Below are positions 35,589 to 43,427 of a stretch of DNA of 64,000 nt, one piece after another. The position numbers and the translations under genes were made by a program. The stretch comes from Rhizodiscina lignyota. Taxonomy: Eukaryota. Under the pieces are notes generated by a model that saw nothing but the letters and a program-made list of their open reading frames with translations, did not search any database and was not told the origin of the DNA. The number at the start of each line of letters is the position of its first letter. Within the stretch, counting starts at the first letter, position 1. Where the stretch lies: contig ML978132.1 of NCBI GenBank assembly GCA_010015805.1, positions 558,001 through 622,000 on the forward strand. The letters run 5' to 3'.

Positions 35589-35713
35589 TCCTCCGTAGTC
35601 TGTAAGCTGCCCCGATTCGGTTAGCTTCTCTTCAACTTCTCACACATATCACAGAGTGGTTATGATCGCCGCTTGTCACGCGGCTGGCCCGGGTTCGATT
35701 CCCGGCGGGGGAG
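35589..35713 (+). tRNA. tRNA-Asp(GTC) interrupted by a 53-nt spliceosomal-type intron (35602-35654) between positions 13 and 14
   Basis: Exon 1 TCCTCCGTAGTCT + exon 2 AGTGGTTATGATCGCCGCTTGTCACGCGGCTGGCCCGGGTTCGATTCCCGGCGGGGGAG give a 72-nt canonical cloverleaf with G10-U25 and G73; the insert is GTAAGC...CTCAC...CACAG. Confidence 0.85.
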
Positions 35714-38164: not shown

Positions 38165-39304
38165 TCATATCTTCCTCTTCTTACTCGCACCATTTGTCCC
38201 CGACTCCGCGCTCGCGCCATTGGATACTTTAATATGAGACCGACACTTCATCAACGGTTGGATCTTTGTCCCAAACTTGTCCAGGCCCTCCAACCAGTCG
38301 TCAAAAGTCAACATGATACCCCTCGTTGCCGGCACAGTGGAAGCCTCATCCAACATCGCCGCAACCTTCTCGAAAGAGCCACACAACGTCCCCATGTTCA
38401 TGTTGACAGAGCTTTCAGGAAGCTTCACCATTGATCGCCAGGTTGCATTCTTATCGGCCTTTGTGTCTTTGCCTCCTTGGTCTGCGATCCATGACACTGC
38501 ATCGACATCGATGCCTTCCTTGTAGTGGTTCCACTTTTCCTCCGCGGCCTCGTCCGTCTCCTCTGCAATGATCATAAAGAGCACATACGCGCTAACATCC
38601 CTTCCGGTTTTCTTCACTACCTCTTCAAGCCGTGTGTTCTGCTCTGTTGCGGCCAATGGAGTATTGTAGCCATGGCCCATGACGAAGTTGTAGTCCACCA
38701 TCTTCGCTGCAAACTCCATACCACCGGCGGACTGGCCTGCGGCGACGATCTTGATATCTGAAGAGGGCTTGGGAGACAGTTTGCAGTCTTCCATGGTGAA
38801 ATGCTTCCCCTTCAGATTTGATACACCATCCTCCCATAGATCTTTCATCACCTGGACATACTCCGTCGCGTATTCGTAGCGGTAGCCGAAATATTTGTTT
38901 CCTGGCCACATGCCCATCTGAGTGTATTCGGCCGGCTGCCATCCAGTGACGATATTAATTCCAAAGCGTCCAGGTGCAACGGAGTCGATGGTCGTGGCCA
39001 TACGCGCAACAAGTGCAGGCGGGAGCGTGAGAATAGCGGTTGAGGCGAACAGTTTGATCTTACTCGTCACAGCAGCGAGTGCGGCCATGAGCGTAAAAGA
39101 TTCGAGATTGTGATTCCAGAACTCCGTTTCGCCGCCAAAGCCTCTGAGCTTGATCATGGAAAGAGCGAAATCAAAGCCATAATGCTCGGCTTTCTGAGTG
39201 ATCTGCTTGTTCAATTCGAACGACGGCTTGTATTGCGGTGAGTTCTTCGATATGAGCCAGCCATTGTTCCCTATGGGAATGAAAACTCCAATGTCCACTG
39301 CCAT
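38165..39304 (-). CDS. rutA: pyrimidine monooxygenase RutA (luciferase-like flavin monooxygenase), intronless
   Basis: [52 protein letters not shown] and VNMNMGTL match enterobacterial RutA as I recall it along the whole length. Confidence 0.93.
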
Positions 39305-39580: not shown

Positions 39581-40711
39581 GGCAATAGCGGATCTAGATT
39601 CCCACTCGTACGCCAAGTCCAAGAACACCAGACTCGCAGTGCTGAGGCCGTTGATATCTGAGCTCTTCCATGACTTTAGCTTGGGAAAGAGGTTGTAATA
39701 GATGTTTGACAGTAATTGTTGGGTCTCCGTCATTTCCCGGTTTGTGGTACGATGTCGCCGGCAGGTCTCTTCCGCAGAGTAGCCGAGATGCTTGCGTCTG
39801 AACTATGCGAACCAAATCGGTGCTGAATCTCGTCAAGATAGGAGGAGAGAGAGAATATCAAAGAAATAGGTAAGACAAGATGGTGGAAGAGAAGGTTGCA
39901 GAACTTGTCAAAGATTTTGTCGTCTTCGGCCACGCACGCTTGAGGGTGACAGCGCAGGGGATGAGTGCCCCACTTTCCTGTTCAATGTCACGAACTCCTC
40001 CCTTTCCTTCACCTCAGACACCGATTGAATATTTTGGGAAAGACCTCTCTTGGAAGCATTACACAGCCACTGTCAGGCCTACATATACCATGGCCATTAA
40101 TAATGTTCGCGCGAACGCGGCGGACGACAACTGCGGCGGTCGAGCACTACGGCGGTCGACTACGACGGCGGACGACAGTCTGATAGGCCTGCGCCAGAGC
40201 GATACATGGTGACGATCGATGTCGCGCTGATGTCGTGCTCAAAGTCCCCGCCGTACTGCCCTCTACCTTTCCGGCTCACCCAGTATTCAGACAGCTCACC
40301 ATCGTTCTAATCCGAAGACCGCGTAGTATCGAAGCCCATAAATCGCGATTGACTAGACTAAAGGGCCACTAAATCTCCTGCTCAGACCACTTGGAGCCTT
40401 CTGATCGGAGGAGTCCTCGAAAAGAGGAGTATCAGATTGAGAGCTCCTGTTACCTTTGGAATGGTCCCTTCCAGAGACCTTTGGCGGAAGTGTGGAGCCC
40501 CGCATGCTGAGAATGGCATCATTCGTACTCACTACGATTGCACCATATCCATGGATCCGACCCCGAACAAACCGAGGACATATATATGCACATATGGCTT
40601 GATTATCTACAGGGCTGACAAATTAAATATCTTAATAGTTTATATTTGAATCTCTCTTCTCTCTCGCTCACTTCACGCTCCTTAACTTCATCTTCCATCA
40701 CATATCTCAAT

Positions 40712-41698
40712 ATGGCATCCGCAGCAGTTCAACTCCCGCCCTCTGCTCCACACCTTAATGGCCCCTTGTCGGCAGTTGGTGTCGAAACCAAGGGTGCAGG
40801 TCCTCGCGATGTAGTCACCAAGCTCAACTACTACAAAGACCCTGGTGATGGCAGCCCACCAGTTCCATCCTACGTGGGCAAGCCTGATACATATAACCGC
40901 CCAGTTGATACTCGCACTGTGACTGTTCATGACGTGCGAGGCCGTGAGACCGAGCCGCACCTGGACACCACTGGTTTCCAGTTCCTCAAGCATGAGAGTA
41001 TCGAAAAGGACTTTACGGACGACGAGCAGATTAAGAAGCAGTACTATCCCGAGGTCGAGCAACTTCTGAAGGACACGTGAGTAACTTCCATCGTCGTAAT
41101 GTCAGCGCTCTAACTAACCTGCAAATAGCACCGGTGCAAAGAGGGTCTTCATCTTCGACCACACGATCCGCCGCCCACAAGCTGCAGGAGAGAACCCGCT
41201 TCGTGGCCCAGTTCAGCGTGTGCACATCGACCAATCATATTCTGCTTCCGAAGACCGCGTCCGCTACCACTTCCCAGAGGACTACCACCGTCTGCTTAAC
41301 GGACGCTTCCAGATCATCAACCGTAAGTCTACCTGTGCACTCTTTGCCCATCCCTGCTGATGATTCGACTAGTGTGGCGCCCGATCAAGACTGTCCAGCG
41401 AGATCCCCTCGCCGTCGCCGCAGCCCACAGCGTCGAGGAGAAGGATCTCATTCCAGTGGCACTCATCTACCCCAGCCGCCGCGGTGAGACGTACACCGTT
41501 CTTCCCAACGAGAAGCACGACTGGTACTACCTGAGCGGCCAGCGACCGGATGAGCCACTCTTGATCAAATGCTTCGACAGCGAGAAGGACGGTCGTGCAA
41601 GGCGGATCCCGCATACTGCGTTTGAGATTGAGGGCACGCAGGATAAGGAGGCGAGAGAGAGCATCGAGGTTAGGTGCTTGGTCTTCTTTCAGGAGTAA
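40712..41698 (+). CDS. AsaB/CmcJ/NvfI-family oxygenase (often mis-annotated as methyltransferase)
   Basis: LDTTGFQ, YYPEVEQLLK, FDHTIRR, VHIDQS, NVWRPI, DPLAV, WYYLS, PHTAF and RESIEVRCLVF motifs; 2 introns. Confidence 0.88.
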
Positions 41699-41904
41699 GA
41701 AGGGAGTTGATGATATTACGAAACAACATTGAATGTGAGTTTGGAATCGAGATTGTAAAGGGGACCCGAGATATATCCATTCCTTCACGTACTGTATTCT
41801 TAAGTCTGAGCAGCATTCGTTCCGACCCTCAAGTCCACAAGCATATGATAAGGAGTTTTGATATTGTCCCTTTGCGCCCTGCTTCAGGTGTGGTGTCGGT
41901 GGCT

Positions 41905-41946
41905 ATGACTCTACCCTGCGTGACTCAGCATTACGCCTGTGAGTCA
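41905..41946. promoter_or_regulatory. cluster of Gcn4/CpcA-type sites upstream of the tandem tRNA genes
   Basis: ATGACTCT 41905, TGACTCA 41921, TGAGTCA 41940; another TGAGTCAT at 42351. Confidence 0.5.
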
Positions 41947-42024
41947 AAAGGCTCCACCGTGGTTTTGCAAACCCAAGCGCTCAGCCTTATATTCCCAAAC
42001 GAATTCTGGGACCGCAGTATTCAA

Positions 42025-42097
42025 AGCTCGTTAGTTTAGTTGGTTAAAACACTTGGCCCATGACCGAGATCCCGGAGTTCAAATCTTCGACGAGCTA
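42025..42097 (+). tRNA. atypical tRNA with CAT anticodon (Met-like; C33, G37, A1-U72)
   Basis: AGCTCGT/ACGAGCT acceptor, GTTT/AAAC D-stem, CTTGG-CCCATGA-CCGAG anticodon arm, CGGAG-TTCAAAT-CTTCG T-arm. Confidence 0.8.
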
Positions 42098-42102
42098 TCT
42101 AC

Positions 42103-42173
42103 GCCTCGTTAGTTTAATGGTAAAACACTGTGCTGATAACGCAGAGCTCGGCGTTCGATTCGCCGACGAGGTA
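42103..42173 (+). tRNA. tRNA with GAT anticodon (Ile-GAT), unusual for a eukaryotic nuclear gene
   Basis: GCCTCGT/ACGAGGT acceptor, GTTT/AAAC D-stem, CTGTG-CTGATAA-CGCAG anticodon arm, CGGCG-TTCGATT-CGCCG T-arm; T-runs at 42177-42190. Confidence 0.9.
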
Positions 42174-42716
42174 TTATTTTTGCCTTTTTTCTTGTAGAAT
42201 CTTTTTGTTCTGCTTCACGGGTTTCTGAGTGCCTGGCAATGAGCATGACCATGGCCAGTGTTGCCACTGCGAACAGACATGGAAACAGTGACGAGACAGT
42301 AGCATGTTTAGAGCAATTCAATTGTATTCGATACCAGTTTGAAACCTGACTGAGTCATTGTATTTTGGTATCGCATTTGTGAAAGGGAAACCACGGAAGG
42401 CATGTGCCTGGGTATATCTTCCATCCTAGCATCGCGGTCGAATGCCGCGCTTTGAAAAGAAAATCATAAACAAAACCATAAAGTATCCAACCAAGTATGA
42501 ACTTGGTCATACGAGAACCTTGGATTCGAAAAAGACATGCCTCGTAACGTAGTCCGATAGCTGAGGACACCTCGCTCACCATGTAGTTGTTCCTGCAACA
42601 ACATCATACGCAGTGTCATAAGCCATGATAGACCTCCTTGTCATCCGAAAGATGCAAATCGCATCTTCCCCGCTTCGCCAGTTACGTATGGAGGCTGGCA
42701 AGTCCTCGCAGCATGG

Positions 42717-43427
42717 CTAGGTTGCTTCCACCTTGACTTGAACATCACCATTCGAGGACTTGTTGACTCCATTCTTGTTGACTCCATTCTTGTTGGCTCC
42801 ATTCTTGTTGGCTCCATTCTTGTTGACTCCATTCTTGTTGAATCCATTCACCACTCCAGCATTCTCAGTCTGATCATGTCCTGCGGCATCAATGAGAAAG
42901 TGGAGCCTTCCACCAGTGAAGTCGTTGAGCTGGTTACCGATTGTCTCGCGCTTCTTAGCCGGTGAACCGCTATCAGTGAGCCACTTGAGGATAATGTAGC
43001 CAACGAAGCCCCAGAAGAATATGAACGACGCGAACACGCTAGTCACGAACATCGTGGGGAGGAGAATAAGCAGAGCAATGCCAACCAGGAGACCAGTCCA
43101 GAGGAGTGCGATGGTGAGGCCGGCGAGGAAGCAGAAGGTGAGGGAGAAGACGAGGACGGAGATCGAGAAGATAGCGAAGAAAAGGATCGGAAGGCCAGTC
43201 ATGAGGAGGTTGACGAGGAGGAAGGCCTCGAAGAAGTCCTATTAGCGTGAGGTAGTAAAGTCAGTCGCTCTTGATGTGCCTCAACATACAGAGAGCTTTG
43301 GATTGCGGTCGGCGAAGGTTTCGACGCGAATCTTCCATTCCTCGGAGAAGACAGACTCCACAAAGCCTTGTCCTCTCGCTAGCATCGTGTTTTCCGCGCC
43401 AGCGTTGTTGTTGGGAGCGTCCGGCAT
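42717..43427 (-). CDS. promethin/LDAF1-like lipid-droplet membrane protein
   Basis: RNPKLS|...GLPILFF... long uninterrupted hydrophobic hairpin region ending FFWG; intron ~43239-43289. Confidence 0.75.
42761..42848. repeat. coding 15-bp tandem repeat (NKNGV/NKNGA)
   Basis: CTTGTTG(A/G)CTCCATT repeated 5-6 times in the promethin-like tail. Confidence 0.95.

Follow-up and report, generated by a model that had tools for sequence, protein, structure and literature searches.

A tandem pair of tRNA genes with CAU and GAU anticodons as a candidate dicistronic unit in a fungal nuclear contig

What is a tRNA-Ile gene with the anticodon GAU doing in a fungal nuclear contig, and why does it lie five nucleotides (nt) behind a CAU tRNA gene with a non-standard anticodon loop? 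The question is raised by two genes in a stretch of 64,000 nt from contig ML978132.1 of Rhizodiscina lignyota, which is called the window below. We refer to the upstream gene as the leader and to the downstream gene as the trailer. With a probability of roughly 0.5 we favor a reading in which the pair forms a single-copy, lineage-restricted and dicistronic RNA polymerase III (Pol III) unit of the nuclear genome that goes back to a duplication and an anticodon shift. The elements of the locus are:

41986–41995, + strand: TATA-like element CTTATATTCC, with the TATA starting at −37 from the first base of the leader
42025–42097, + strand: leader tRNA(CAU), 73 nt, from ARAGORN, Rfam and a position-by-position parse
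42098–42102, + strand: spacer TCTAC, 5 nt, without a T-run
42103–42173, + strand: trailer tRNA-Ile(GAU), 71 nt, from ARAGORN, Rfam and the parse
42177–42181 and 42185–42190, + strand: terminator-like T5 and T6 runs, starting 4 nt past the trailer

Structure and flanks of the pair

ARAGORN annotated the two genes in the 64-kb window as tRNA-Met(cat) at 42025–42097 (+) and tRNA-Ile(gat) at 42103–42173 (+). The Rfam model RF00005 (gathering score 29 bits) aligned to both over its full length (model positions 1–71 of 71), with 53.3 bits for the leader (E = 1.2e-08) and 63 bits for the trailer (E = 2.6e-11), where the E-values refer to the whole window. Both calls are far above chance expectation. 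In the parse the leader has an A1-U72 pair, the discriminator A73 and a D arm with the stem GTTT/AAAC and a loop of 9 nt. Its anticodon loop reads CCCATGA, with C33 at 42058, CAT at 42059–42061 and G37 at 42062. The variable loop has 4 nt (ATCC), the T loop is TTCAAAT, and all 21 of 21 stem pairs are standard, two of them being G-U. The trailer has a G1-U72 pair, A73, the same D stem as the leader with a D loop of 7 nt, and the canonical anticodon loop CTGATAA with GAT at 42135–42137. Its variable loop also comprises 4 nt (AGCT), and its G+C-rich T arm (CGGCG/TTCGATT/CGCCG) has a stem built entirely from G-C pairs. The G+C contents of the two tRNAs are 47% and 51%.

The minimum-free-energy fold of the 149-nt unit consists of two cloverleaves. 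Its energy is unremarkable (z = −0.99; 32 of 200 shuffles fold at least as well) and is therefore uninformative either way. The spacer at 42098–42102 would be the site at which RNase Z and RNase P separate the two tRNAs. The locus had been described before by a first-pass annotation made from the letters of the DNA, and its structural account stands. The succession of a CAT cloverleaf with C33/G37 and a GAT cloverleaf is recovered by ARAGORN, Rfam and the parse, and the 5-nt TCTAC spacer with a T-run only past the second gene is found in sequence and parse alike. The parse likewise returns the 4-nt variable loops of both copies and the combination of A1-U72 with a TTCAAAT T loop in the CAT copy.

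The flanks of the unit were compared with the statistics of the window. A TATA placed between −42 and −27 is found by chance at 2.7% of window positions, and the upstream flank that contains it here has a G+C content of 49%, which is a nuclear composition. Inside the unit the longest T-run has three residues. A T5 run within 15 nt past a 149-nt unit occurs at 0.6–0.8% of window positions, and the combination of TATA and T5 at 0.005–0.03%. A 5-nt spacer, internal T-runs of at most three residues and T5/T6 runs after the second gene together are the layout of a tandem Pol III tRNA unit. The first-pass annotation had taken the pair for one unit, and the TATA at −37, the lack of a T-run in the spacer and the T5 and T6 runs past the second gene fit that proposal.

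For comparison we used the tRNA gene flanks of Aspergillus niger (table S2 of PMC6108506; 100 nt upstream plus terminators for 37 genes, counted by eye). In 16 of the 37 genes an exact TATA has its start within −42 to −26, mostly at −37 to −31, and several further genes have a near-variant at a similar place (PMC6108506). T-run terminators are found for 37 of 37 genes and are often bipartite, and the T5/T6 arrangement of the present locus resembles terminators such as TTTTTGCTTTTTT (PMC6108506). The flanks of the pair thus look like those of a working Pol III gene; co-transcription of the two tRNAs is what we infer from this likeness.

Common descent and anticodon identity

Leader and trailer agree in 53 of 73 aligned columns, and a repeat search returned a 54-nt unit repeated at 72% identity. 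The identity alone is weak evidence for paralogy, because tRNAs fetched by the common D-arm/loop pattern (see below) also reach 70–72% identity to the pair among the matches listed. The acceptor stem is more telling. Pairs 3–7 are identical in the two genes, and since this region is normally the most variable part of a tRNA, we regard the agreement as a stronger sign of common descent. The shared blocks noted in the first-pass annotation are present as well: the 12-nt block CTCGTTAGTTTA is exact in both copies, and ACGAG is common to both 3' acceptor strands.

The stems have diverged without loss of pairing. Out of 21 stem pairs, 15 are identical between the copies, 2 are changed on one side, 4 on both sides and none is broken. 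The copies differ at 10 stem nucleotides, while 21 of 21 pairs are standard in each of them; when 10 random stem substitutions were simulated, all 21 pairs were kept in only 3 of 200,000 trials. The tertiary 15-48 pair, as read off the parse, covaries (G15-C48 in the leader, A15-T48 in the trailer). Judged by these patterns, leader and trailer are most plausibly tandem paralogs; the same view, of tandem copies with diverged yet paired stems, had been taken in the first-pass annotation, and the pair tally bears it out. The anticodons differ by one base, C34 in the leader and G34 in the trailer, so that a single C/G change separates the Met and Ile reading classes.

Eukaryotic Ile tRNAs carry A34, which is deaminated to inosine, or U34. 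The trailer departs from this with its G34 and has the features of the bacterial and organellar type of tRNA-Ile instead, namely GAU, U33, A37, A38 and A73. These features would predict how the trailer decodes, not where it came from. The anticodon GAU has been reported missing from eukaryotic cytosolic tRNA sets (PMC8007984), in agreement with the first-pass annotation, which had remarked that the eukaryotic cytosol reads AUU/AUC with tRNA-Ile(IAU) and that G34 Ile tRNAs are typical of bacteria and organelles. The isoleucine codons in six Pfam-supported open reading frames (ORFs) of the window comprise 112 ATC, 66 ATT and 29 ATA, a preference for ATC that would fit a G34 reader. By its structure the trailer is a flawless G34 tRNA-Ile, which would be expected to be charged by isoleucyl-tRNA synthetase (IleRS) and to read AUC and AUU. 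Whether it acts as a working cytosolic G34 tRNA-Ile, and so breaks the rule that eukaryotes have no GAU, is a further step that we suggest only tentatively from its sequence.

A literature search on tRNA-Ile(GAT) in fungi found no paper, a search on tRNA-Ile GAU in Pezizomycotina found only work on a mitochondrial genome, and a text search of the literature for six sequence motifs from the two genes gave only an unrelated match. The curated A. niger list contains one entry named 'tRNAIle2' with GAT; it is 187 nt long with a 100-nt 'intron' and is not tRNA-like (PMC6108506). Fungal annotations hence do contain odd GAT calls, each of which has to be checked individually.

In the leader, the two departures from the norm, C33 and G37, are confined to the 7 nt of the anticodon loop, and the remaining 66 nt show none. 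Two random changes would both fall into the loop with a chance of approximately (7/73)^2, or ~1%, so that the confinement of the oddities to the loop is unlike random decay. Cytosolic initiator tRNA-Met is characterized by A1-U72, by G-C pairs at 29-41, 30-40 and 31-39, by A54 together with A60, and by A37. The leader has the first of these features (A1-T72). At the anticodon stem it has T29-G41 in addition to G30-C40 and G31-C39, and position 37 is a G (42062). Its T loop TTCAAAT lacks A54 and A60 and differs from the ATCGAAA of the A. niger initiator (PMC6108506). With only two of the three G-C pairs in its anticodon stem, a T loop other than ATCGAAA and no A37, the leader is not an initiator by these features. 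Nor does it look like an elongator tRNA-Met: C33 and G37 stand in place of U33 and A37, and it has no motif in common with the elongator Met of A. niger (PMC6108506). Next to CAU, C33 and G37 should make the leader a poor decoder or elongator. The combination of a flawless body with impaired decoding suggests that it is kept chiefly as a promoter-bearing, processable leader.

Origin, function and genomic context

The favored reading can be laid out as follows. One tRNA gene would have been duplicated in tandem, a one-base change at position 34 would have moved one copy between the Met and Ile classes, and both copies would have stayed under selection for the tRNA fold. Pol III would start upstream of the leader, aided by the TATA at −37 and by the internal A and B boxes of the leader, read through the 5-nt spacer and stop at the T5/T6 runs past the trailer. 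RNase P and RNase Z would then release two tRNAs. The trailer would be charged by IleRS and read AUC and AUU; the leader would be retained mainly as a promoter-bearing leader for the trailer and might be a weak Met acceptor as well. From transcription onward, each of these steps is one that we infer.

Several points weigh against this reading. Since GAU lies outside the eukaryotic cytosolic set (PMC8007984), a working trailer would be an exception. The intact stems speak for structural constraint in the past and are no proof of present function, and C33 and G37 might equally be expected of a damaged gene. The sequencing-run listing contains no RNA run for the locus. When we searched the curated set of 284 nuclear A. 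niger tRNA genes (table S1 of PMC6108506) with 14 motifs from the D arm, acceptor stem, T arm and anticodon arm of the pair, 13 were absent; the remaining one, TAGTTTA, was found once, inside a tRNA-Leu gene with a 52-nt intron. Neither tRNA body resembles the Ile(AAT), initiator Met or elongator Met of A. niger (PMC6108506). The pair is accordingly not pan-Pezizomycotina; the comparison spans classes and bears only on universality in this group.

Relatives were also sought with the loose pattern TAGTTTAN{5,8}AAAACANNNNNCYSATRA, which matched at least 122 metagenome, at least 120 prokaryote-genome and 92 viral stretches and yielded 334 loci. A BLAST comparison of the pair with these loci gave matches of at most 32 nt, all within the region forced by the pattern, and among the 554 tRNAs that ARAGORN called in them the best global identity was 70% to the leader and 72% to the trailer, in both cases among the matches listed. 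No ortholog is among them, a further point on the negative side to which the looseness of the pattern leaves little weight. When viral contigs were scanned for the 19-nt 3' halves, one half had a single chance match, in coding-looking DNA without a tRNA, and the other had none.

Much of this evidence would suit a silent or useless relic of a once-working tandem unit as well, in which case the intact stems would mean that function was lost recently. The leader departs at near-universal loop positions (C33, and G37 beside U36), the anticodon of the trailer lies outside the normal eukaryotic set (PMC8007984), and the pair appears to be single-copy and is without an equivalent in the curated A. 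niger list (PMC6108506). tRNA pseudogenes do occur in the window, as is evident from a degenerate tRNA-Asp(GTC) gene at 35638–35713 that scores 21.7 bits against the threshold of 29. On the other side stand the zero broken stem pairs in either copy, the presence of every conserved tertiary position checked, the confinement of both leader departures to the 7-nt loop (chance ~1%) and the intact TATA at −37 and T5/T6 runs. We consider a relic doubtful, although it deserves to be taken seriously.

On origin, the main rival is a nuclear insert of mitochondrial DNA (NUMT) or another insert derived from an organelle or bacterium, whose folds would have been inherited from working organellar genes; we regard it as unlikely. 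It would explain why Ile GAU, and CAU with G37, are anticodons of the organellar and bacterial type. In yeast mitochondria, the initiator tRNA reportedly has a G37 that is methylated by Trm5 (title of Lee et al. 2007), and in seven A+T-rich metagenome loci a tRNA-Met(CAU) has the loop CTCATGA. Phage, bacterial and organelle-like tRNAs commonly have the A+T-rich D arm TAGTTTA...AAAACA (more than 330 pattern matches). Similar spacing is known from mitochondrial tRNA clusters, one dothideomycete mitogenome having two trnM genes of 71 and 73 nt that lie 5 nt apart (PMC4366305). That mitogenome, however, has a G+C content of 25% (PMC4366305), against 47–51% in the two tRNAs and an all-G-C T stem in the trailer. 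The TATA at −37 sits in a flank of nuclear composition, the flanks are like those of ordinary fungal tRNA genes, and C33 would be unexpected in a working organellar tRNA. In published mitochondrial gene orders of Pezizomycotina, trnI follows trnV or trnW (VISWP, WIS, W-I-R), and the gene behind trnM is trnM, L, E, G or H and never I, so that the excerpted orders lack trnM-trnI (PMC4360972, PMC4366305). Among the matches listed, moreover, none of the 554 fetched tRNAs is more than 72% identical to either gene, and in none of the 334 loci does a BLAST match (at most 32 nt) extend beyond the pattern-forced region. The first-pass annotation had doubted a mitochondrial insert as well; its doubts appear reasonable, and the upstream TATA and the mitochondrial gene orders (PMC4360972, PMC4366305) add weight to them.

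The seven loci with CAU and G37 (L024, L043, L056, L058, L059, L063 and L067) are on soil-type metagenome contigs of up to 108 kb and look organellar; L024 is extremely A+T-rich. Two further loci, L004 and L017, match at 401–432 (−) with a tRNA-like sequence that has the acceptor strand GCCTCGG, the D-arm pattern of the pair and a CTCATGA loop. They have extra bases before the 3' anticodon stem, like an intron-containing tRNA-Met, and ARAGORN calls no tRNA in them.

A specialised role beyond bulk cytosolic decoding had been put forward in the first-pass annotation, which thought of a specialised or non-translational function. Such roles could include service as an initiator-like Met tRNA for special starts, import into mitochondria, use as a substrate by a tRNA-dependent enzyme, or the supply of regulatory fragments. 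The leader does mix initiator-like traits (A1-U72, C33, G30-C40, G31-C39) with an elongator-type T loop, it has 5 of 7 acceptor pairs of the A. niger initiator, by eye (PMC6108506), and both anticodon loops are of the organelle type (PMC8007984; title of Lee et al. 2007). It fails three of the four initiator features, though, and the neighboring genes (luciferase-like monooxygenase, promethin, Pol I A49 and Pet127) give no functional link. No evidence of any kind bears on a specialised role, which remains a guess that nothing supports, and we consider it quite improbable. A nuclear unit under selection that encodes an organelle-style G34 tRNA-Ile and an initiator-like G37 tRNA-Met for import into mitochondria strikes us as very improbable.

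The head of a tRNA-derived short interspersed element (SINE), or of another repeat family, would likewise present a tRNA-like sequence with internal Pol III boxes and a T-rich tail. Such elements come as many dispersed copies with target-site duplications. Here, the segment 41725–42474 is matched at 80% likeness or more by 1 of the 15,746 contigs of one public run (34.2 Mb), a contig identical to it, no flanking target-site duplication was found in 41700–42720, and ARAGORN and Rfam call no further copy in the window, which makes this explanation extremely improbable. The pair is probably single-copy, with the proviso that the run may be the source of the window itself and that short matches may be missed.

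The surroundings of the pair are those of a fungal nuclear genome. The window has a G+C content of ~50%, and its ORFs belong to fungal nuclear families (myosin V, Pet127, RNA polymerase I A49, promethin and a luciferase-like monooxygenase). For the A49 protein the closest named match, at 99% identity, comes from a dothideomycete, and the named relatives after it reach only ~50%, which suggests an organism without a close sequenced relative in the protein database. The pair itself sits in a gap of ~1 kb between convergent genes, bordered by a gene on the + strand that ends at ~41698 and by the promethin gene on the − strand that ends at 42717. The ORFs 40646–41080 and 41360–41698 (+) resemble exons of a single gene that stops ~330 nt upstream of the leader; no Pfam family was found in them at E ≤ 0.001. 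At 38165–39304 (−) lies an intron-free ORF of 379 amino acids for a luciferase-like monooxygenase (PF00296, E = 9.5e-46) amid ordinary fungal housekeeping genes.

The third tRNA-like gene of the window, called by ARAGORN as tRNA-Asp(gtc) at 35638–35713 (+), has 76 nt and aligns to the Rfam model at positions 7–64 only. Its 3' half looks like that of a normal tRNA-Asp, with G73 and a T7 run behind it. The acceptor strand on the 5' side and the D region misfit, and no TATA was found upstream. It is probably a damaged tRNA-Asp gene. A derivation of the trailer body from tRNA-Asp was considered and dropped, the tRNA-Asp of A. niger having only CCTCG in common with it (PMC6108506).

Expression and charging of the trailer would make it a clear example of a G34 tRNA-Ile in use beside the inosine system in a eukaryotic cytosol. 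The pair would also represent a natural switch between Met and Ile identity by one anticodon base within a tandem gene, with a bearing on the evolution of tRNA sets and on how strictly eukaryotes avoid GAU, and the leader would be an instance of a tRNA gene retained mainly for its role as a promoter and in processing. Should neither tRNA be used, the pair is no more than an ordinary tRNA relic of one lineage, with little wider interest.

Comparison with known tRNA genes and gene systems

As a tRNA-Ile, the trailer is like bacterial and organellar tRNA-Ile(GAU) in its anticodon, its loop CUGAUAA and A73. The leader is like a mitochondrial initiator in that CAU is followed by G37, as in the yeast case (title of Lee et al. 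2007) and in the seven metagenome tRNAs. Unlike organellar tRNAs, the pair has G+C-balanced stems, nuclear Pol III-type flanks and 4-nt variable loops, and C33 is present in the leader.

With the cytosolic tRNAs of A. niger the pair shares the general cloverleaf and A73; the leader further agrees with the initiator in A1-T72 and in 5 of 7 acceptor pairs, counted by eye (PMC6108506). The individual counterparts differ. The Ile(AAT) of A. niger has 74 nt, A34, the D stem GCTC and a 5-nt variable loop, unlike the trailer; its initiator has the anticodon loop CTCATAA and the T loop ATCGAAA, and its elongator Met is intron-bearing, both unlike the leader (PMC6108506).

The arrangement of the pair has close parallels in yeasts. 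Tandem tRNA genes that are separated by very short spacers and share one terminator behind the second gene are described as common among hemiascomycetes (PMC2566860). Yeast examples are tRNA-Ser/tRNA-Met of Schizosaccharomyces pombe, tRNA-Arg/tRNA-Asp of Saccharomyces cerevisiae and 17 tandems in Debaryomyces hansenii; in the Ser-Met pair of S. pombe, dependence of the trailer on the A and B boxes of the leader has been demonstrated (PMC2566860). As in these tandems, the present genes are a few bases apart, a terminator is lacking in the spacer while T-runs follow the second gene, the leader bears the promoter elements, and the normal tRNA maturation enzymes would be expected to act (PMC2566860). 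In contrast to them, the pair belongs to a filamentous ascomycete that the best protein match places among the dothideomycetes, its two members are paralogous to each other, neither is a standard cytosolic tRNA (G34 Ile anticodon; C33/G37), and co-transcription is predicted from the layout. The dicistronic architecture would thus be of a known kind, with unusual content.

Anticodon shifts and the recruitment of tRNA genes have been catalogued by Rogers and Griffiths-Jones in 2014 (PMC3923123). The present case is like the catalogued ones in that a duplicated gene, within a family that has copies to spare, would change class by one substitution, C34 versus G34. It is unlike them in that the bodies of leader and trailer have diverged by 27% since the split. 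In the excerpt of that survey, which covers five taxa including 11 Saccharomycetes, no isoacceptor shifts are recorded for Ile or Met and no Met/Ile alloacceptor shift was seen (PMC3923123). Tandem tRNA genes and anticodon shifts are both known; the present locus would combine the two, with unusual content.

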